Origin: a virus
Taxonomy: Duplodnaviria > Caudoviricetes
Virus record (IMG/VR): IMGVR_UViG_3300004213_000011
Span: 1 to 46,914 of that record
Direction: 5' to 3' (one strand)
Length of the DNA: 46,914 nucleotides
Every line of letters begins with the position of its first letter. Positions within the stretch are counted from its first letter, which is position 1. The notes below the pieces were generated by a model that did not search any database, was not told the DNA's origin, and saw nothing but the letters and a program-made list of their open reading frames with translations. Below are positions 20,427-41,701 of this stretch, piece by piece. A program made the position numbers and the translations under genes.

Positions 20427-22531
20427 TATTCAAATCTTCTTAATAGTTCAAAATTACTACTTTCCATGCTGGAGGCATCAAGTTCTAATAAATACCCCTG
20501 CTTGATATTGCCCAAAGAATCTTCAAACTGAACAAGGCCGTAAGGGTTGTTTTTTATTTGCTGTATCTCATGCGGTTGTAAACCATACGAAAAAGTGTAA
20601 ATTTCAGGGTAACCAATCGGGTCGGGTAATTCTGCAATTAAAAAATCCTGGTTTTCGGTTATAATCTTTGTTTCGTTTAACAACCGCGATGCCATGCGAT
20701 AATTACCCTCGCCCGTGGTAAATTTAATGTATTTATCTAATTGGTGCAACAAACCCGCTTTTAAATTACCGGCATGGTTTAACGCCATACGGGAGGGGCT
20801 TATGCGGGCATTATAAACTGTCTCGGGGCTTATCACATTGGCAATTTCGGCAAAGGCTGTATTCCTTTCCGTTACAAAGCTTGTCCCATCCCGTAAGACA
20901 CAAATTACATATAGGTCATCATCTTTGCTAGTGTCTTTGTCGGTTCCTAAATTATATTGTTGCCGCCTCGTAGTTTCTATACTGTACCCCCCTGCAATAA
21001 ATTCGCTTATTGCCGAATATTTCTTTTTTACTTTCGTTAAGGGTAAAGCATAAGCCCGGCGGCTGTTAAATTCATCTAACCCGTTATCGCTTTCCGTTTG
21101 CCATTTTGTATAGCCGAATTCAGCCTGGTTATAAGCATAGGCAGAAGCGGAAACCTTATGTAGATTTGTTACTTTGCCTAAAGTCAAAACAACCTCTGGT
21201 CGGTAAAAATAACTTCTAGGTTCTACCCGTATTCTTTCTTTACCTTCTACTATTTCAATGCCGGTGCCTAAACAATATGTAGCATCCATACCTGCATACC
21301 ATTTTTTATAAGTGGTTACCGGCGGGCGCTCACCCCAGGGGAAATTTCTTATCTGTGCGCCGTTGGTGAAAAATAATAAGCTGCCACGGCCATCTGCCGG
21401 GTATTGTCTTGGCTGACTATCAGTACGGCCCAGAAAATCACTCACAAAACTATCTGGTTGCCCGGTTATTGCTTCGGTTAGCCTGGCCCCTACTTCGTGC
21501 GCCAGCATGCCACGGCTCGGTGTTTCGGGTGTTTGCGTTAAGCTATCAATCTTAATAAAAGATACTACTTTGTCGGGCCGTATTCTAAACCGCCAACGAT
21601 AAGCGCCGGAAACATCATCACCGAAAACCCGACCCCAGAAATATATTTTATCTCCTATTTGAATATCTTCTTCAGTTTGAAAGTCAAAATCAACCGTACG
21701 TATATAATCTTCTTTCCCGTCTTTCTTATCAGAGAAGCCCGCTAACTTAACCGGTGCCCCTTCATTACGCCGGTAGAAGAATTCTATTGTGCCCCGGTCA
21801 AATTGGCCCTGAATCCAGTCAATTTCCACCAAGGCTTTAAAACGGATATGTATTGACATTGGCCCTTGTTCGGCGGAACGTTCTAATATTTCAAAAACAT
21901 TACCATCGAAGCTAAACCCGGTCGCGTAAGTAAAGGCTTTTAGCTCATTCCTGATTATATTGTCCCAACCTATTACTATAGTAGCATCACGGGCGTTGCT
22001 GTTGTCCACTACATCGCTTTCGTAATCCGTTGGTGCATCATCGCTGATGCGAGCCTCATAACCCCGGCGTATAACTTTACTGTGGAGCGTGATGCTTTGG
22101 GTTTCGTTGGTAAACGGGGTGATCGGCTCTCCTAACGGAGATGTTAATTTGTTCAAGTTTATTTCTAAGTCCTCTCCATTTATAAACCGCATAGCAAACC
22201 CGGTCTGCTCTATATTTGTTTTTATGCCGGTGTCGCTTATGTCGTATTTGTCGAGGTTTATAACACCCACAAAGTCAGTGTCCCAAAGTAAATTTAAATT
22301 CATCCGCTGAACATAGATGTTTATTTCGCCTTCTATACCCTCCGTTTCGTAAACGTCTTGTATATAATCCCGCCCATCTTTAATAAACTCTAGTTCGGTT
22401 GAGTATTCTACCGTGATGCCGTGATATTGTTCCGAACGCTTAAACTTATGGCTATTGGTATTCCAGCCTATAGGGTCGTGTTGTAAAACTAAACGCCCTT
22501 TCCGTTTATTTATAAGTATGTACCTAAACAT
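20426..22531 (-). CDS. Tail tip/baseplate hub protein
   Basis: 701 aa, directly after the TMP; P.GW N-terminus and NGLDEFN motif. Confidence 0.65.
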   Translation of the reverse strand: MFRYILINKRKGRLVLQHDPIGWNTNSHKFKRSEQYHGITVEYSTELEFIKDGRDYIQDVYETEGIEGEINIYVQRMNLNLLWDTDFVGVINLDKYDISDTGIKTNIEQTGFAMRFINGEDLEINLNKLTSPLGEPITPFTNETQSITLHSKVIRRGYEARISDDAPTDYESDVVDNSNARDATIVIGWDNIIRNELKAFTYATGFSFDGNVFEILERSAEQGPMSIHIRFKALVEIDWIQGQFDRGTIEFFYRRNEGAPVKLAGFSDKKDGKEDYIRTVDFDFQTEEDIQIGDKIYFWGRVFGDDVSGAYRWRFRIRPDKVVSFIKIDSLTQTPETPSRGMLAHEVGARLTEAITGQPDSFVSDFLGRTDSQPRQYPADGRGSLLFFTNGAQIRNFPWGERPPVTTYKKWYAGMDATYCLGTGIEIVEGKERIRVEPRSYFYRPEVVLTLGKVTNLHKVSASAYAYNQAEFGYTKWQTESDNGLDEFNSRRAYALPLTKVKKKYSAISEFIAGGYSIETTRRQQYNLGTDKDTSKDDDLYVICVLRDGTSFVTERNTAFAEIANVISPETVYNARISPSRMALNHAGNLKAGLLHQLDKYIKFTTGEGNYRMASRLLNETKIITENQDFLIAELPDPIGYPEIYTFSYGLQPHEIQQIKNNPYGLVQFEDSLGNIKQGYLLELDASSMESSNFELLRRFE

Positions 22532-25500
22532 TTTTATAGCGTCCGTTTTCGTAAGCTGTCCACTCTTTGTTTTCTTTTACCGTAATGTTTACCTCTTTTT
22601 TATTTTTTACGGCCCTTTCAAGCCGGTTAAAATAGTGGCCTAATTGGCGGGTAATACTTACTTCTACGGCGGCGGTATTTACCGGGGCAACGGCTTTGCT
22701 TAATTCTTCTTTGGTGTTGTCGAGCGAACTAATATATTTTGTTTGTTGGTTGCCCGCTAATATATCGTTTAGCATCCGCTCTGTTTCCAAATGCGTGTAA
22801 ACTTTTTCGCCTTTCTCCAGATACGTTAAGCTTGGGCCGGGGGTCGGGTTAATATAAAATTTGCCTTTGTGTTCCCGTAACTCTGGGCCTTTTTCGTTTA
22901 TTACTGCAAATTCAGCCTCTCCCCCTTTACGGCCTTTTGCATAAGTAGGCAAAGGCTTACTTAACACTACGGCGGCCTGTATAGCGCCCTGGGCCAGGGC
23001 AAAGGCGCTAAACGGTAAACCAAAAGTTATAGGGGAGGCGGCTACTGATTTAGCTACAGCAATACCAGTATTTAACGCTATTTGGAATAGAGCGGCCACC
23101 CTGTCTGCTTTGGCCTGCTTAACCCGTAAGGCGCCTATTTTCTTTTGGTACTCTTCTTCTATTTTAGCTTTAGCCGCTTCGTTATCCCCGGCCAGGGCCA
23201 CCTCTGCTTCTTTTTGTTGTTCCAGCTCTTGTATACGGCGCTCGTTTATATTAGCCCCTATTTCAAAACCGCCCTGCAAAGCGGCGTTTGCTAATTCTAT
23301 ACCGGCTTCTTGTATTGCTTTGCGGCGTTCCTCTTCTAATTTTAGGGCTTCCGTTCTGGCTTCCTGGTCGGCTTTATATTTGGCGGTAAAGTCTTCCATA
23401 CGCTTAACGCTGGCTTTTACTGCCTCATCTTCTATTTTTTGCGCCTCATCAAAATCAAGGGTCGGCTGGGTAGCAAACAATTCAGGCATTTCTAAATCCT
23501 TTGCTAATTGCTTTTGGATTTTAGAAACCTTTGCCCCGTACTCTTCTATTATTTTTGTGCGCTCTTCACCTATTAATTCCTCGTTGGCGAGTAATTGGTT
23601 TTTCTCAATACCGGCGATACGGATGCGCAAAATAGATGCTTCGCGCTGGGCGTTTAGTATTTCTATGCCCGTGTCCCCTATCTTCTCGCGGAATTGTTCG
23701 GCGGTTAACTTACCATCCTCAAAAGCTTTCTTCCATACTTCATTCTGCTTTTGCGTATCGGCAATAAATTCATCCAATGCCCCGGCCTGTTGTTCCAGTC
23801 TGAACTTTTGCAACTCGGCCAGGGCTTGTTCTTGTTTCTTTCTGTTATCTAAATCCTTTGCGGCTTGTTCGGCTGCTTTGGCGGCGGCGGCCTCCGCATC
23901 TTCGGCAACTTTGGTGTTTATAGTTTTTGTCTGTTCATCAAAGCCTTTAATGCTGGCTCTTAATTTTTCTATTTCTATTTTACTTTTACCGGCGGCATCG
24001 GCCATGCGTTCGGCTTGGGCTTTTACCATTTCCATAGCCGGGCCACTAACTCGCCCGAACCCTAAAACAGCGGCTTTTGCCTTATCGTAATAATTTATCT
24101 CCGCTGCCTGTTTAATGGCCGCTATCCTTTGCACCTCCAGGCGTTGCAGAGTTGCCAGGGCTAGTTTTTTCTGGTTTTCAATTTCGGCCCGTACGCCCTC
24201 CTGTTGTTTAGGGCTTAACTTATTAAAGTTTTCGATCTGTTTATTTATGGCACCCTGGGCCAGGCCGACTTTCACCATTGCGAACTCGGCGGCGCCATGT
24301 AATTTATTCAGCTTATCTTGTACCCCGATATTCCGGGCGCTGTTTTCGGATAACTTATTAAAACCTACTACTAAGGCGGTTAAGCCTACCAGCACTAAGC
24401 CTATCGGGTTGGCTAACATAGTAGCAAACCAAGCCCGCATGGTTACAATATTCCTTAGTATAGCAACACGGGTAATGCCCATTGTGGCGGCCCACCCTTT
24501 CTCGGCTACGTTGTTAGCAATAATAGAACCACGATAACCCAACATAGCGGGCACCGTTGCAGCAAGCCCGGCTATACGCTGTAAAATACCCAGGCGGCTT
24601 AACCCTATGCTGATGGCCCAACCTTTCTCGGCTAAGGCCGTGGCTAGTAGTTGCACCCGGTATGCTACAAAAATAGCAAGTAAGGTGCCTATTACTTCTT
24701 TGTTTTCCCGGATAGCCTGCACTACGGTTTTTATTACGGCCATAAAATCCAGCATGCCCTTAACAACCGTTTTCAAAAACGTTTGCACCTCTCCACTGTT
24801 GAAAGTGTTAATAAACCCATTTTTTAGCTTTTCTAAACCGGCGGCCAGGTTTTCGTTCTTAATATTAAATTCTTCTGTTAAGCTAGTACCTTCTTTTAAT
24901 TGCTGGGCGGCTACTTTTTGGCGTTCAGAAACTAGGTCAGTGTTTTTAGCTAATAAAGTTAAAACGGAAGAAGCTCCTTGTCCATCAAGTTTTAACTCTT
25001 TTACTAATTTACTAAAAGCCACGGTGTCTTGCCCCCCGGCGCGAAGCCCTTTTAAAAACACTTGAAAGGCTTTATTTACATCAGTATTAATTAATCTTTC
25101 AAACTCTTTGAGGTTTAAATTAGCATCGCCCATTTTGGCTACTTCAAAAAATGCTTCTGATGCACCGGCCATTCCACTTATTAATTTGGAAAATGCTGTA
25201 CCCCCTACCTCTGCACTAATACCGAGCTCTTCTAAGGCCGCCCCGTACCCTAATACTTTATCTAATCCTAATCCTGCATTTTTACTCACGGCGCCCACGC
25301 GTAAAGCAAAATCAGTAATATACGGCCCGGTGGCGGCCCCGGCAGACCCTAAAGAGTTAACAGCGGAGCCGATATTGGTTAAGCCTTTCTCAAGGCCTAC
25401 GCTTTTACTTATGCCGTACACATTGTTTATCTTAGCCAGGGCGGTGCTAATTTCTTCGGCCCCGCCTGCAAACTCATCTCCCAAGGCCACGTTTGCTTTG

Positions 25501-26720
25501 TCCATTGCGTTGGTAAAACCTTCAATGTCTTTGCCGGTTACCCCTAGTTGGCCGCCGACTTTTGCAATATCAAGTAATTCGTTTAAGGCTGTACGGGTGT
25601 CAAGCTTAGCAAAGCTTTCGGTTAAATCATCTACCGCTTCTTTTGTTAGTCCCGTGGTTTTTTGTACATCTGACTGGCTGTCGCTTATTTCAGAGTTGGC
25701 GCTTATCAAGCCACTTACTCCGTTCATTAACGCTTGGAAACCTACGTAAGCCCCCACAGCCTCAATGCCCATCCGTTTTATACCTCCGGTTATTTTAGAG
25801 CTTATCTGGTCGGCGGTTGCTGCGCTGTCTCCGTACTTTCTTAGCTGTCCGTTTACATCATCAAGAGCGGCGTTGGTTTGTTTTAATTCGGCCTGTATTT
25901 TATCCTGGGTGGCGGCACTGTCGCGGGTGGCCGCCGCCTGTTGCCGGAGGGCTTGCACCTGGGCGGTTAAAGCAGAACGTTGTTCGTTTAATTTGTTCTT
26001 TGCCTCTATTATACTGGCAGCATAATTACCTACATTACGGAAATTTTGGTTTAACTCCTTATCAAAATCTTTAAGCTTTTGGGTGTTGGCAAATATCTGG
26101 GCCTGTAGTTCTCTTACTTTCGGGTTTGTTGTATCAAGCCCGTTACCCATAGCCTTTAAGGCTTTGTTTAGCTCATTATTTTTTTGGACAAGTTCGTTAT
26201 AACTACCGGCGGCGGCGCTTACGGTTTGGGCTACACCTTTGGCCGCATTGGACATCATCTGGGCCTCGGCCCGTGTCTCCTGTATTGCCGTTGCCAGTTG
26301 CCGCCAGCGGTCGGGCTGTTGGGATTTACTTACCCCGTCGAACTCTTGTTTTAAAACTTTAAGCCGGTCTTTCAGGCCGTTTACGCTATCATTAAAAAGC
26401 TCCTGGGTTTTAATGATGCCCTTTTGGCTCGTCTCCAGTTCGCGCCAACGGGCCACCTCCTTGTCAACCGAACCGGCCAGTTTTACAGCTTGGTCTTGTG
26501 TTGCTTTAGAGGTAACGTTTAATCTTTTTAGGGTGGCTTCGCTTTTTGTTAAGTCAGTAACAATAGCGGCCATAGCCTGGGCATTCCGGTCGCTGAATAC
26601 CTGTAAAGCAGCCGCGAGCCGTTGCAGTTGAGATTCAAAACCATCAATCGCTTTTGTTGCCTTGTTTAACTCTGTTTCGTTGCCAAAGTCGAATATTTCG
26701 CCAAACCCTATTTTATCCAT
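22524..26720 (-). CDS. Tape measure protein
   Basis: 1398 aa, Ala-rich coiled coil, TP901-type core (DVQKTTGL...GGQLG), central TM segments, C-terminal AKG...E.GPE motif. Confidence 0.95.
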   Translation of the reverse strand: MDKIGFGEIFDFGNETELNKATKAIDGFESQLQRLAAALQVFSDRNAQAMAAIVTDLTKSEATLKRLNVTSKATQDQAVKLAGSVDKEVARWRELETSQKGIIKTQELFNDSVNGLKDRLKVLKQEFDGVSKSQQPDRWRQLATAIQETRAEAQMMSNAAKGVAQTVSAAAGSYNELVQKNNELNKALKAMGNGLDTTNPKVRELQAQIFANTQKLKDFDKELNQNFRNVGNYAASIIEAKNKLNEQRSALTAQVQALRQQAAATRDSAATQDKIQAELKQTNAALDDVNGQLRKYGDSAATADQISSKITGGIKRMGIEAVGAYVGFQALMNGVSGLISANSEISDSQSDVQKTTGLTKEAVDDLTESFAKLDTRTALNELLDIAKVGGQLGVTGKDIEGFTNAMDKANVALGDEFAGGAEEISTALAKINNVYGISKSVGLEKGLTNIGSAVNSLGSAGAATGPYITDFALRVGAVSKNAGLGLDKVLGYGAALEELGISAEVGGTAFSKLISGMAGASEAFFEVAKMGDANLNLKEFERLINTDVNKAFQVFLKGLRAGGQDTVAFSKLVKELKLDGQGASSVLTLLAKNTDLVSERQKVAAQQLKEGTSLTEEFNIKNENLAAGLEKLKNGFINTFNSGEVQTFLKTVVKGMLDFMAVIKTVVQAIRENKEVIGTLLAIFVAYRVQLLATALAEKGWAISIGLSRLGILQRIAGLAATVPAMLGYRGSIIANNVAEKGWAATMGITRVAILRNIVTMRAWFATMLANPIGLVLVGLTALVVGFNKLSENSARNIGVQDKLNKLHGAAEFAMVKVGLAQGAINKQIENFNKLSPKQQEGVRAEIENQKKLALATLQRLEVQRIAAIKQAAEINYYDKAKAAVLGFGRVSGPAMEMVKAQAERMADAAGKSKIEIEKLRASIKGFDEQTKTINTKVAEDAEAAAAKAAEQAAKDLDNRKKQEQALAELQKFRLEQQAGALDEFIADTQKQNEVWKKAFEDGKLTAEQFREKIGDTGIEILNAQREASILRIRIAGIEKNQLLANEELIGEERTKIIEEYGAKVSKIQKQLAKDLEMPELFATQPTLDFDEAQKIEDEAVKASVKRMEDFTAKYKADQEARTEALKLEEERRKAIQEAGIELANAALQGGFEIGANINERRIQELEQQKEAEVALAGDNEAAKAKIEEEYQKKIGALRVKQAKADRVAALFQIALNTGIAVAKSVAASPITFGLPFSAFALAQGAIQAAVVLSKPLPTYAKGRKGGEAEFAVINEKGPELREHKGKFYINPTPGPSLTYLEKGEKVYTHLETERMLNDILAGNQQTKYISSLDNTKEELSKAVAPVNTAAVEVSITRQLGHYFNRLERAVKNKKEVNITVKENKEWTAYENGRYKNV

Positions 26721-26726
26721 TTGAGA

Positions 26727-26894
26727 TTATTTTACAGCAATAGCTTTATTAAATTCAAGTATCTTACTATAATTCGCTTTAATTTGCAAACGAAGTTCTT
26801 TCCTTTTTTCTGATGCGTTTTCGGCCCCAAGTAAAGAAGTATATTCTTTTACTAAGCCCTTTGTTTCAGTAGATAAACTTTGATAGCTATGCAT
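26727..26894 (-). CDS. 55-aa protein similar to TMP residues ~172-223, absent from the ORF track
   Basis: MHSYQSLSTETKGLVKEYTSLLGAENASEKRKELRLQIKANYSKILEFNKAIAVK; 15/52 identities to the TMP segment by hand alignment. Confidence 0.7.
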   Translation of the reverse strand: MHSYQSLSTETKGLVKEYTSLLGAENASEKRKELRLQIKANYSKILEFNKAIAVK

Positions 26895-26899
26895 AATGT

Positions 26900-27115
26900 T
26901 TATTTTTTTACGCTGAGATAAGCGGCTGTTAAAATTGTAGATACTAAAAGAACCGCCCCAGCCAAAGTTTTCCGTTTTTGTTTGGCCTTAACTTCTGCAA
27001 TGCTCTTTGATGCTTCGGCAACCGCGTTGCCAAATCTAGCCATTGCATACGTTGCTCTTTCTATTTCTCTGGTGTTGCTGAAATCAAAAATATCATTAAA
27101 AGTTATCTTATCCAT
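26900..27115 (-). CDS. Mini-TMP: copy of the TMP N-terminus with a C-terminal TM helix
   Basis: 15/28 identities to TMP residues 1-28; hydrophobic LAGAVLLVSTILTAAYLSV tail. Confidence 0.8.
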   Translation of the reverse strand: MDKITFNDIFDFSNTREIERATYAMARFGNAVAEASKSIAEVKAKQKRKTLAGAVLLVSTILTAAYLSVKK

Positions 27116-27129
27116 AGTTTTATATTGAG

Positions 27130-27609
27130 TTAATTTATTAAATCCTTTATTGTATCACAAAGCACATAACCGGCCACAGCCCCTACTGGCCCCCAAAACA
27201 AAGGGGAGCCGAATAACCCCGGCCCCCTGTTAGCTGTTTTTTGTAACTTTTCAAATCGCCTTCGTAAATCTTCTTTTGTTTTAGCATCAGCCGAAATTTG
27301 CTCATTTAAGGCTATGTTTATTTTTTGGCCTGTATTAGCTTGATCTAAAAGCAAAGTATTAGTTCTTTCTAATTTAGTTATAGAGGCTTTTTGATCGTTA
27401 ATGGTTTTATCGGCAATATCAAACTTTAGACTTTCTTGTCTGTAGGTTTTTACGTCCATAGCAACGGCGGTATCGTATGGCACTGGCTCACCTTTAAAAA
27501 GTAACGTGTAATCTTTCGGCGGGGCCGCACCCTGGGCGTGTAGGTCAGTAACGGGGCCGCCGAGGCATAAGACGAACAAGAGAATCATATTTGCGATAAT
27601 TGTTTTCAT
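27130..27609 (-). CDS. Exported coiled-coil protein, spanin-like candidate
   Basis: Signal peptide, coiled coil, hydrophobic C-terminus; overlaps the upstream TM coiled-coil gene. Confidence 0.45.
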   Translation of the reverse strand: MKTIIANMILLFVLCLGGPVTDLHAQGAAPPKDYTLLFKGEPVPYDTAVAMDVKTYRQESLKFDIADKTINDQKASITKLERTNTLLLDQANTGQKINIALNEQISADAKTKEDLRRRFEKLQKTANRGPGLFGSPLFWGPVGAVAGYVLCDTIKDLIN

Positions 27610-27904
27610 TTTGTTTTTTTAATTTAAGGTTTAACATATTTAACTCCCCGTTCTCACGGGTTAACGCTTCGACCTTGGCGTAAGTAATCTCCAGTTCGTC
27701 GATATATTTTTTCCGGGTTGCCGTGTTTATACTATCCCGTAATTTACTTAGCTCAAATTCTTTATCTTGCTTTACCAGCGTGGCCTCTTTACTACAGCTA
27801 CGCATAGATAATATAGAACCAAATATAAAAACTATTATCAATAAAGCAGCTAAAATACTTGCCTTATTGCCCTGTTTGAAGAAATTAATTAGCTTGTTCA
27901 TCAT
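27545..27904 (-). CDS. Membrane-anchored coiled-coil protein, i-spanin-like candidate
   Basis: N-terminal TM helix followed by coiled coil. Confidence 0.45.
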   Translation of the reverse strand: MMNKLINFFKQGNKASILAALLIIVFIFGSILSMRSCSKEATLVKQDKEFELSKLRDSINTATRKKYIDELEITYAKVEALTRENGELNMLNLKLKKQNENNYRKYDSLVRLMPRRPRY

Positions 27905-28268
27905 GCTGCAATTTAAAGTTTAATTTAATTTTGAATAAGTCCGTTACAAGGTTTTGGATTTCGTGTACGTAATCCACTTTAACTTTAAATCCATAACTAT
28001 CATCATCCCCCAGGCCACTATGTATAAAAGCAAAGCCATCTTTGTAATTTAAAACACCCTTGTCGGATGTTACGGTTAATGTTCCGTTACTCATTGGGTC
28101 TATTTTATCTGTCCATTCTTTGGTTAAAGGGATACCTCTTATTTCTTTTATTGATATTAATCCAACTTGAAAATCTGTCCATACATAGGAAGGTTGGATA
28201 CCTTCTATTTTGGTATCAGTAATTCCGTAGGTAACTAAATTACCTATTCTTAATTCATTTGCTTTCAT
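27885..28268 (-). CDS. Accessory phage protein (MKANELRIGN type)
   Basis: ELRIGN, IPLT.EW and YVHEIQNL motifs recurrent in Bacteroidota phages. Confidence 0.65.
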   Translation of the reverse strand: MKANELRIGNLVTYGITDTKIEGIQPSYVWTDFQVGLISIKEIRGIPLTKEWTDKIDPMSNGTLTVTSDKGVLNYKDGFAFIHSGLGDDDSYGFKVKVDYVHEIQNLVTDLFKIKLNFKLQHDEQAN

Positions 28269-28639
28269 AGTTGTTCGTTTTTGGGTTTGTGCTTTTCTTT
28301 TAAATATTTAATCCAGTTGTAAAATTCATATACTGTTAAGCTACGGGGGTTACTTACCCCTAAATCTTCTAAAACCACGCATGTCTGCGCAAAAGAGTTT
28401 TCCATTTCTAACATTACGTTTTTACTATCCTCTCCGTTAAAGTTTTTAGGCTTCATTTGGCTTAGTAACCAATCGTTAACTGTTTTTATTTGCTCTTCCA
28501 GTTCGGGGAATTCCGGCTCCGTTATGGTTTTTATTTTAAGCAACGCCCGCCGTACTACCTGGGTATGGAACTCTATTGTTTTATCGTCCTCAATTAATTC
28601 GGGGAAATATAATTCAATTTCACTATTAATTTTTTTTTT
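28265..28639 (-). CDS. Tail assembly chaperone frameshift extension (gpGT-like)
   Basis: The -1 frame is open from the A10 run (INSEIELYFPELIEDD...) into the 92-aa track ORF. Confidence 0.75.
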   Translation of the reverse strand, partial: KKKINSEIELYFPELIEDDKTIEFHTQVVRRALLKIKTITEPEFPELEEQIKTVNDWLLSQMKPKNFNGEDSKNVMLEMENSFAQTCVVLEDLGVSNPRSLTVYEFYNWIKYLKEKHKPKNEQL

Positions 28640-29043
28640 ATTTCCTCCTTTAGTTCGTGGATTTGGTTATAAGTTATGTCTCCGCTCTCTAACTGTTTGG
28701 CTATTGCTAATATATCCGTTTCCGTTACGTCTTGTACCCGCTCTCCGTTTATGCTGTGTACTAAGTGCGCCAGGCATAAACTACCGGTATCAATTCCCTC
28801 CAGCATAAAAAACATTCCCAAACGGAGGTTATGGCGTTCCTGTAAAGCTTCACGTACCCGCCCGGCGGCGTAGAAGGTATCATATTTAGCCAGGCGTACA
28901 TCAATGTCCTCTATTTTGGAACCCATGCCCGCGTCCTGTACTATTGCTATTTGGAAAGCATTAAGTTTCCGTTGTGGCATTTCGTGTATATCGTCGTAGA
29001 AGCTTACGGTTAGGTTATTACGCTGTAGTATTATTTGCCTCAT
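28594..29043 (-). CDS. Tail assembly chaperone (gpG-like)
   Basis: Ends IKKK over an A10 slippery run; upstream of the TMP. Confidence 0.7.
   Translation of the reverse strand: MRQIILQRNNLTVSFYDDIHEMPQRKLNAFQIAIVQDAGMGSKIEDIDVRLAKYDTFYAAGRVREALQERHNLRLGMFFMLEGIDTGSLCLAHLVHSINGERVQDVTETDILAIAKQLESGDITYNQIHELKEEIKKKLIVKLNYISPN
28630..28639 (-). other. Programmed -1 ribosomal frameshift site (A10)
   Basis: ATA AAA AAA AAA TTA; a -1 slip joins the two ORFs. Confidence 0.75.
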
Positions 29044-31124: not shown

Positions 31125-31907
31125 TTAAGGTTTGCAAGTTTTACAAGGGTACAATCCGGTAGCATCTGTAATAAGTTTACCTGGCTTGTTTTCATAATGG
31201 GTGAGGCGGTGATAGGTTTTAGAAGTGCCTATCCGCTTATAAGTAGTTACTGCTTGGGCCGGGGCTAAGTCTGTGCGCTCTATGCCTATTATTTTGCGTA
31301 CCTCCGGCGCCTGGGCTTTGGTTATACCGTGGCTGAAACCGCTATTATCAAAATCCATATCGCTATATGCAAAAGTAAAAGCTTGCATGAACGCCTCACC
31401 TGCTAAATTATAGTACTCCGTTTCGTAGCTTACCTTTTCCCACCAGAACGCCTCACCCGTAGGTATCACGCCGCCGGGGTGCATAAGGCCGTGTATGGCT
31501 TTGCGCTGTTCATCAGTAAGGGGTAGGAAGTAGTCTACTAAGTGGGCTAGTTCGGCGCTTACTGTTGCTTGTGCTACTTCCGGGTATTTTGTTAAGGCTG
31601 TATCTACATAAATATTGCCGGAACCGGGATAAAATACGCCTAAAATGTATTTCCGTCCGTTTACTTCCCCTTCTATTAATTGGGGGCTATCATCGCCGGG
31701 GGCGTGTGGGCCAGCATGCAACTTAGGCGCACTCTTCCATTTAGCTTTAAAAAAGGTGGGGCTATTTAAATCATCCCAACCAATAGCAAAAATGCCAGAA
31801 GGAGCATTTAACTTATCCCAGGGAAACATTATTTTATCGAGACCGGTTTTTATAATGTTTACTTGCTCGGTAGTACCCCGTAAATCGAATTTGTTTTTAT
31901 AAATCAT
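31125..31907 (-). CDS. Zincin-like protein with C-terminal Ada-type metal-binding remnant
   Basis: AELAH (HExxH variant) and E.F..AF downstream motif; SKTYH...GLYPCKTCKP C-terminus. Confidence 0.45.
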   Translation of the reverse strand: MIYKNKFDLRGTTEQVNIIKTGLDKIMFPWDKLNAPSGIFAIGWDDLNSPTFFKAKWKSAPKLHAGPHAPGDDSPQLIEGEVNGRKYILGVFYPGSGNIYVDTALTKYPEVAQATVSAELAHLVDYFLPLTDEQRKAIHGLMHPGGVIPTGEAFWWEKVSYETEYYNLAGEAFMQAFTFAYSDMDFDNSGFSHGITKAQAPEVRKIIGIERTDLAPAQAVTTYKRIGTSKTYHRLTHYENKPGKLITDATGLYPCKTCKP

Positions 31908-32193: not shown

Positions 32194-32367
32194 TTATTTA
32201 TAACCTAACCCGGTAAATACATTTATACATTCTTCCAACTGGCTTTCATCCATTAAAGGAATTAAATCCAGGTGTTTGTTATAAAGTTTTGTGCCAATTA
32301 TTTTTTTTGCATAAGCTTTATTTACTTGTTTTCTTAATTTAGTTCTTAACTTTACTATTGCCTCCAC
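32194..32367 (-). CDS. 57-aa hypothetical protein (GTG start), absent from the ORF track
   Basis: VEAIVKLRTKLRKQVNKAYAKK...; fills the intergenic gap. Confidence 0.4.
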   Translation of the reverse strand: MEAIVKLRTKLRKQVNKAYAKKIIGTKLYNKHLDLIPLMDESQLEECINVFTGLGYK

Positions 32368-32804
32368 CCTGCTAAATATTTAAGTACTTGTTCAACTAAA
32401 CTTGGTTTTAAATAATCATGGGCCAGTGTTTCACGTGAAGCATCACTTAACCCTATTAATTCATCTCCGTATTTTGCTTCTAAATCCTGGGCCTTTGCAT
32501 CGGTTGCCTCCATGCTTATACCTTCAGTGTCTACTCTCGCTTCAATACTTTCGTGGTAAGCGCCGGTTGCCTTTAAATCGGGCACCCCTGGCCGGGGGCG
32601 ACTGTTCATAAACTGTTTAGCCTGGGCGTATACCGGGTTCCTATAACCGGGTGTTATCTCGCGGCCTGTTGTATAAGTACCTTGTAATAATTGCTCTGCG
32701 TTCAAGTCTTCGATAACCGGGGTGTATTCCCGTGCCGCTTCCTCTAACATATCCTTTATAGGTATGTTTTGTAAGCGGGCCTTTATCATTTGCAGAGCAT
32801 TCAT
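32355..32804 (-). CDS. Neck/tail completion protein (HK97 gp10-like position)
   Basis: DLN.EQL..G, PDLK.TG.Y..SI and L..KYG...IGL motifs. Confidence 0.65.
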   Translation of the reverse strand: MNALQMIKARLQNIPIKDMLEEAAREYTPVIEDLNAEQLLQGTYTTGREITPGYRNPVYAQAKQFMNSRPRPGVPDLKATGAYHESIEARVDTEGISMEATDAKAQDLEAKYGDELIGLSDASRETLAHDYLKPSLVEQVLKYLAGWRQ

Positions 32805-35744: not shown

Positions 35745-35771
35745 TGTTTGGTATATACAAATATACGCAAA
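35745..35771 (-). promoter_or_regulatory. Phage promoter repeat inside the structural region
   Basis: TTTGCGTATATTTGTATATACCAAACA. Confidence 0.85.
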
Positions 35772-41068: not shown

Positions 41069-41701
41069 CTATACTAATTCAGCAAAGCTATAATCAGGGA
41101 TAGTCTGGGCAATATCAGAATCCCAGTCAGGCTGGAAGTTAAAACCAAAAGGAATTTTATCATCTTGGTTCAAACCTTCGGTTCCACGGGTGGAGTTACG
41201 GTAATTCAGGATAGGAATACCTACTGGTAAACCATCTGCATTAACGTTGTGAATCCAAACACCGTTTTTGTTCAGCAAAAAGGCGCCAATGCGTGGGAAC
41301 CCACCGCCCGCTTGAGAAACGCACCGGATTTGATCCAGGGCTTTTTTAACAGCAGGAGCCAGGTTACGGTAAAAACCAGAAGGCGAAACCGGGCCTTCTC
41401 CTAAATCAATCGGTAGACCGAAAGGCGTAGTATTATCTCCACCCGCTTCGGTTTGCGCCTCAGAAGAAGGAATAACAAAGTTGCTAATTGCCGGGGTTAA
41501 GGTTAACCGGGTTGCACCGGCGGCTGCTCTTAACGCATTAACGGCAGCAATGTCATTCAAACCGGCATCAGCGGTAAAGGTAGACGCGCCTCCTGGCTGC
41601 AATAGCTGAAACCCGATACGTACGATCTGGTCAATCTTAAAACCGCAATCCTCCGCGGGGACTAACGGTAGCTCCTCGGGAGCTGGACATGGACATCTCA
41701 T
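41069..41701 (-). CDS. Putative major tail (tube) protein
   Basis: 210 aa, Gly/Pro/beta-rich, N-terminal CPCP...C...QI..I.FQ motif; no other tube candidate in the genome. Confidence 0.5.
   Translation of the reverse strand: MRCPCPAPEELPLVPAEDCGFKIDQIVRIGFQLLQPGGASTFTADAGLNDIAAVNALRAAAGATRLTLTPAISNFVIPSSEAQTEAGGDNTTPFGLPIDLGEGPVSPSGFYRNLAPAVKKALDQIRCVSQAGGGFPRIGAFLLNKNGVWIHNVNADGLPVGIPILNYRNSTRGTEGLNQDDKIPFGFNFQPDWDSDIAQTIPDYSFAELV

Follow-up and report, generated by a model that had tools for sequence, protein, structure and literature searches.

What is a gene that begins like a tape measure protein (TMP) and ends like a membrane protein doing just ahead of the TMP gene itself? The question is raised by a small open reading frame (ORF) of 71 aa (26900..27115, minus strand) in a 46,914-nucleotide stretch of phage DNA, called the window here, which combines a TMP-like N-terminus, a helix, a basic patch and a predicted C-terminal membrane anchor. 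The window is one virus record, 88% complete, with nearly all of its genes on the minus strand and with PHROG matches for terminase, portal, capsid, chaperone and tape measure genes. Its proteins match phages of Bacteroides, Parabacteroides, Flavobacterium, Croceibacter and Elizabethkingia (44 matching records for its 191-aa gene and 76 for its capsid), and by sequence comparison we place it among the B40-8-like Bacteroidota siphophages. A tyrosine integrase (PF00589) was found in none of three records, the window and its relatives G001 and G002, with the control positive in 14 of 14; the search covers PF00589 only, serine recombinases lying outside it, and the other two records are 99-100% complete where the window record (G000) is not. 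These phages thus look lytic, a lifestyle that we infer from gene content. Between 26727 and 35760 of the window, small low-GC ORFs (0.28-0.37) interleave the structural genes (0.39-0.46), and these mostly differ between the window and G001. Within the tail module a 260-aa gene without a known family (31125-31907) is 58% identical in G001 and was not found in G002. Further along, a 210-aa gene (41069-41701) is a ‘major head protein’ according to PHROG; the gene at the same position, in the interval between terminase and portal, is annotated as the major tail protein in B40-8, TCUEAP2 and P2559S.

Downstream of the small ORF is the TMP gene (22524..26720, minus strand; 1398 aa), which matches PHROG TMP families (E 5.5e-70) and PF10145. 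Between the two lies a 55-aa low-GC ORF (26727..26894, minus strand; GC 0.30) with no PHROG match and no counterpart in G001. Upstream is a 159-aa gene (27130..27609, minus strand), homologues of which adjoin the TMP in G002 and in a short contig, L008. A 119-aa gene with an N-terminal hydrophobic helix overlaps it (27130-27904 for the two together), and the 159-aa protein itself has a signal-like start and a C-terminal hydrophobic helix. This pair, for which no family matches were found, sits between chaperone and TMP in the window, G001, G002 and L008, and in G002 (L004:4366-5987) it comes after genes for a membrane protein and for a possible cell-wall hydrolase of 187 aa; the two overlapping genes are possibly a spanin-like lysis pair. 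Beyond them, two ORFs corresponding to the two halves of phrog_8914 form a tail assembly chaperone pair (28265..29043, minus strand). They are likely linked by a programmed frameshift; a run of ten A lies near 28630-28639, inside the split region, and in phage 1/32 the chaperone is encoded by one joined CDS at the position matching the split pair.

The first 28 residues of the small ORF and of the TMP (TMP residues 1-28, the source motif, 26637-26720, minus strand) share 15 identities, eight of which use a different codon (K3, I9, F10, D11, F12, E17, T22 and A24), exactly as a sequence-only reading of this DNA had stated. DNA identity over these codons is 53/84, distributed as 20/22/11 of 28 by codon position. 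The match is well beyond chance, with a tblastn E of 1.2e-6 within the window and a local score of 80 compared to a maximum of 63 in 2000 shuffles, so the proposed relation to the TMP N-terminus holds. Of the 347 window ORFs that are at least 30 aa long, no other two form a paralogue pair at the protein level; the four remaining blastp pairs were rejected as read-throughs of a repeated DNA element. The likeness ends at residue 28, with no identities to the phage's own TMP in residues 29-44 (0/16). The small ORF carries a clade-specific N-terminal motif that scores within the range of 12 TMPs, has only 28 of the TMP's 1398 residues in common with it and matches neither PHROG families nor PF10145. 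It is not itself a TMP, and the name ‘mini tape measure’ first given to it went too far.

After the conserved tip motif (D-K-x-x-F-x-D-x-F-D-F, codons 2-14; 27074..27112, minus strand) comes a drifted TMP-derived helix (codons 15-28; 27032..27073, minus strand). The basic patch noticed earlier is there, with five of seven residues basic (K43-K49; 26969..26989, minus strand); the transmembrane segment is a prediction by hydropathy alone (residues 51-69, Kyte-Doolittle mean 2.03 over 19 residues, then two lysines; 26909..26965, minus strand). We also considered whether the hydrophobic tail is a frameshift of TMP codons 29 onward, and rejected this because the other frames are non-hydrophobic and stop early.

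The same reading had taken the synonymous differences as a sign that the small gene is functional and not a decaying duplication. Synonymous change does exceed non-synonymous change between the small ORF and the TMP (pS 0.75, pN 0.29; Fisher p 0.001), but over the same codons the values for the window TMP and its orthologue in G001 are pS 0.96 and pN 0.23, and every TMP pair tested shows a similar pattern. As orthologous TMPs differ equally, the excess does not prove selection on the small gene, and the 5′ end of a foreign TMP, if captured recently, would give the same picture. This opens the way to a recombination relic, in which a TMP 5′ end, taken from a related phage or left behind by an insertion at the junction, came to lie in frame with unrelated DNA and is now functionless, its synonymous signal having been earned earlier while the sequence was still a TMP. 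We think this unlikely, though the likenesses of the copy are of the kind it predicts: the first 36 nt of the window copy are 86% identical to the G001 TMP compared to 24/36 for the phage's own. The conclusion of function is now the better reading, and what backs it instead is a second carrier, conservation restricted to the motif and a plausible start context.

The second carrier is G001, a 99% complete genome whose TMP is 65% identical to that of the window, with aligned DNA about 65-72% identical. Here an ORF of 168 aa (L001:5725-6231) ends 8 bp before the TMP, and its last 79 aa have the same layout of motif, helix, basic patch and hydrophobic tail (Kyte-Doolittle 1.79) with a terminal lysine; this copy and the TMP are that genome's only convincing protein paralogue pair. 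Ahead of it an 89-aa domain is fused in frame (L001:5725-5991), for which no PHROG, Pfam or Atlas family was found. The fused ORF starts in a good initiation context, and the internal methionine is without one. The 55-aa ORF of the window was tried as a homologue of this fused domain and ruled out (p 0.63). The two carriers are too divergent from each other to be one assembly error, though both record names belong to one dataset, so that they are not independent habitat samples.

What is conserved in the two copies is the motif. By mean BLOSUM score against 12 TMP N-termini, residues 2-14 score 45.8 in the window copy and 44.8 in the G001 copy, compared to 32.1-50.2 for the TMPs themselves, and F10, D11 and F12 are invariant in 10/10 TMPs. 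Residues 15-28 score 11.8 and 18.8 (TMP range 15.9-30.0), and residues 29-45 score 4.2 and -2.2 (TMP range 10.2-28.3). In the window copy residues 15-28 are thus below all 12 TMPs, yet still above shuffles (p 0.0003), while residues 2-14 have not drifted in this way, which argues against a relic. When only the first ten TMPs are used both copies fall below the range at 15-28, and it is the addition of L059 and L060 that brings the G001 copy inside, so the drift argument is weaker for that copy. Over these residues the G001 copy matches the L060 TMP at 7/14, and over residues 2-14 the window copy is most like the L059 TMP (10/13), as a relic captured from outside would predict. Neither copy resembles the TMP of its own phage more than it does foreign TMPs. 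Simulated neutral change of 0.5 per site leaves the six motif residues in 0.12% of cases and an open frame in 9%; at 0.3 changes per site 14 or more identities are still seen half the time, and the test thus depends on the age of the copy. Across B40-8-like and other phages of Bacteroidota, TMPs with N-terminal regions that are dissimilar in all else share a related tip motif (hydrophobic-x-aromatic-x-D-hydrophobic, followed by a helix), and judging from these sequences it is likely to be a conserved docking element.

To explain both copies as relics, two captures at the same site would be required; in each the frame must have remained open over another 43-49 codons (probability 0.04 and 0.02 in random DNA of this composition), and each must end in a basic patch and a hydrophobic tail, for which the base rate is about 3%. 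Such C-terminal tails occur in 1/52, 2/75 and 3/95 gene-strand ORFs of 50-200 aa in three genomes, a total of 6/222 that includes both copies, of which the G001 copy alone is unaffected by the way in which the finding was selected. Set against this, homology between the two tails is undetectable (p 0.22-0.24), the junction evidently takes insertions (the 55-aa ORF here, the N-terminal domain in G001) and the genomes are rich in small low-GC inserts. The two copies group together in trees built on 44 columns (70/88 and 67/82, with long branches) but not in those on 27, and no history is rejected by AU tests over 27-44 columns, so that one or two origins are both compatible, as a relic view also allows. 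On sequence grounds one old origin followed by separate insertions would be the simplest history. The shared layout at the same locus and the motif-restricted conservation favour function, and we consider it probable that the small ORF is a selected, functional gene.

The unit is present in two of six close-subgroup records (window, G001, G002, L008, G003 and G004). The six are those in which both the TMP motif and the DNA ahead of the gene can be seen; among them, the L008 contig measures 1.3 kb and G003 has a completeness of 48%. The homologue of the 159-aa gene lies 7 bp from the TMP in G002 and 5 bp in L008, and since it adjoins the TMP there, the small unit is an insertion at this junction. 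At L008:646-1264 the TMP ORF breaks off after 158 aa and gives way to high-GC sequence unrelated to it, so that this is probably an assembly chimera. Six cultured distant relatives, two of them read in part, have a related TMP tip and none has a second copy.

Wider searches yielded no further carriers. With the small protein as query only itself was recovered (1/8 candidates), and a profile built from both copies and nine TMP tips recovered, from 881 candidates of 27-139 aa, no more than itself and a single TMP fragment; longer fused forms such as that of G001 fall outside this length range. No homologues were found in viral contigs, plasmids or GTDB scans; cultured phages gave only five matches, at E 2, the PDB nothing below E 0.1 and the Atlas nothing above 0.83, with no usable feature match for the G001 protein. 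Two motif scans of viral contigs returned two loci and ten loci, which are G001, G002, two TMPs without a copy (G003 and G004) and six chance matches. In a further 18 loci found by whole-TMP alignment, many of them only distant relatives, the TMP N-terminus is not repeated; a single weak match among them (E 0.019) lies outside the motif. One protein, P0002, is 78% identical to the window's TMP over residues 1-120. Among the papers turned up by full-text search, none describes a TMP-derived, membrane-anchored paralogue in its title or abstract opening, though supplements might hold one.

The small ORF appears well placed to be expressed with the tail genes. It lies on their strand among short intergenic gaps, 14 bp from the upstream gene, and A stands at -3 and -6 of its start, around which no fold is predicted. 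In Bacteroidota, initiation is reported to be favoured by A at -3 together with low structure (PMC6847099). No promoter of its own was seen, there being no sigma-70-like site just upstream and site counts being at chance level, and a terminator-like hairpin (27204-27227) was rejected since it is inside the 159-aa gene and such hairpins occur near chance counts. The nearest promoter-like repeat is at 35767, 8.6 kb upstream. This AT-rich repeat element of 30-75 bp stands ahead of gene blocks at 14, 7553, 8428, 9978, 35767, 43666 and 44837 (minus strand); there are seven in the window and 14 copies in G001, and G002 carries a different repeat. Its core holds what we take to be the Bacteroidota -7 promoter box, and from its sequence and placement the element is likely a strong phage promoter. 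Co-transcription with the late-operon tail genes would follow from this arrangement. A single DNA run, possibly the window's own source, contains the small-ORF region in one contig without differences, and no RNA dataset is listed as containing it.

If the gene is functional, the obvious question is what its motif binds. In phage 80alpha a single tail completion protein (TCP), which bridges to the DNA end, is bound by residues 1-37 from three TMP chains (10.1101/2024.12.10.627806), and in T5 the TCP is reported not to be located at the TMP N-terminus (10.1101/2024.10.16.618446). The candidate partner of the TMP tip in the window is a 149-aa protein (32355..32804, minus strand) that matches phrog_6195 ‘tail protein’ and is homologous to PDS1 gp53, annotated as ‘virion morphogenesis protein’. 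Its model (pLDDT 65.7) has the order of elements described for 80alpha gp51, its fold matches to named completion proteins are weak, at about E 0.2-1 (0.23-0.95), and it has no Pfam match and nothing in the PDB by Foldseek or by sequence. We regard it as a likely, if weakly assigned, TCP, for which a fold like that of HK97 gp10 or lambda gpZ and a gene upstream of the terminator gene would be expected. By analogy with 80alpha, the copied TMP segment is probably a docking epitope lacking the coiled coil needed for tail entry.

One use of such an epitope would be interference with related phages by capturing their TCP. The copy keeps the length of the 80alpha TCP-binding segment (10.1101/2024.12.10.627806), the motif is common across the family, a likely TCP gene is present, and HK97 gp15, a small inner-membrane protein, has the same genomic address (PMC3594210). 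However, since the motif scores like a normal TMP tip it would trap the phage's own TCP as well, the gene has no promoter of its own and is 8.6 kb from the nearest promoter-like repeat, and with integrase found in 0/3 records there would be no lysogen to protect. Together with the T5 result (10.1101/2024.10.16.618446) and the weak TCP assignment, this makes the idea rather doubtful. The phage might instead use the protein on itself, the anchor holding TCP or finished tail tops at the membrane and so buffering TCP or timing head-tail joining. The place beside the TMP in the late operon, on the same strand and with short gaps, suits such an aid, and so does the retention of a segment that binds TCP in 80alpha (10.1101/2024.12.10.627806). 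It is absent, however, from G002, L008, G003 and G004, which have the same tail genes, and from the six cultured relatives, so the unit is not needed for assembly, and an aid of this kind would not be expected to resemble foreign TMPs as closely as its own; we consider this explanation improbable.

The explanation we prefer, and only tentatively, is that the small gene is an intact accessory gene encoding a decoy for a host or rival-element factor aimed at the TMP tip. Its patchy presence and in-frame fusion in G001 point to an accessory gene, and a sponge for an outside factor is favoured because a decoy for the phage's own TCP would be self-harming and no lysogen needs protection. Its gene would share a transcript with the tail genes, and its translation would come immediately before that of the TMP. 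Under the positive-inside rule, basic residues before a hydrophobic helix place the N-terminus in the cytoplasm, and the motif would thus face the cytoplasm with the C-terminal tail as anchor. Without the long coiled coil the small protein would be unable to enter the tail, and its anchor would park the bound factor at the membrane, this factor being a tail blocker or sensor that recognises TMPs, comparable to Tab, Rta, Avs18 or SNIPE. Defences that target TMPs do exist (PMC10884400, PMC12987554, PMC13581612, PMC13190303), and anti-Tab is a late-operon counter-defence (PMC10884400). The targets reported in these sources are the C-terminal region for Tab (PMC10884400), residues 314-387 for Rta (PMC12987554), a central 130-residue segment for Avs18 (PMC13581612) and residues 100-150 for SNIPE escapers (PMC13190303), so that none of these systems is known to read the N-terminus, which speaks against a decoy. 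Further points against it are that a decoy could trigger a sensor instead of blocking one, that there are only two carriers, from one dataset and with C-terminal halves not detectably homologous, and that the likenesses to L059 and L060 are what capture from foreign TMPs would predict.

It may be, and we put this just as cautiously, that phages can spin off the invariant docking tip of the TMP as a membrane-tethered decoy, a counter-defence or anti-competitor strategy made out of one of their own structural genes, which would imply an undescribed system that recognises the TMP N-terminus. It is only lately that tail assembly has come to be seen as an arena of conflict for phages and bacteria, with the TMP as a repeated target. 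If the decoy reading is right, the gene, which keeps just 13-28 residues of the TMP tip, marks that tip as an epitope under outside pressure and provides bait for its binder, and it would clearly exemplify how a piece of an essential structural gene can give rise to a new phage gene. If the gene is a relic, it still cautions against reading selection on a copy from synonymous differences between phage paralogues.

Several known systems resemble parts of this picture. In 80alpha the first ~37 TMP residues form a docking element of a strand and a helix, the length copied here, though that phage belongs to another family with no sequence link and the element acts within a full TMP trimer in the neck (10.1101/2024.12.10.627806). 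Avs18, SNIPE and Rta show why a decoy might pay, as they take TMPs as targets (PMC13581612, PMC13190303, PMC12987554), with SNIPE acting at the inner membrane (PMC13190303); their mapped targets are internal, and the available text of these papers describes no phage TMP decoy (PMC13581612, PMC13190303, PMC12987554). Prophage mimics of FimU are likewise phage-encoded look-alikes of a structural component used to interfere, but they copy a host pilus protein and not the phage's own tail protein (PMC12952977). Closer is HK97 gp15, a small predicted inner-membrane protein encoded between the chaperone and TMP genes, whose exclusion depends on the tail region of the target phage and which differs in not being TMP-derived (PMC3594210). 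The small ORF has the position of a gp15-type moron, and the membrane anchor by hydropathy alone, but neither a promoter and terminator of its own nor, with PF00589 in 0/3 records, a temperate carrier. Anti-Tab of Pseudomonas phage JBD26 is a late-operon accessory gene that neutralises a TMP-targeting tail blocker and acts when tails are built (PMC10884400); the small ORF, too, is a co-oriented gene inside a late operon. Anti-Tab differs in being paired with its own tab gene, whose product reads the TMP's C-terminal region, and the available text describes it neither as a TMP copy nor as membrane-anchored (PMC10884400). By analogy, the small ORF belongs with the accessory decoy or moron genes of phages, and its nearest cases are HK97 gp15 and anti-Tab.
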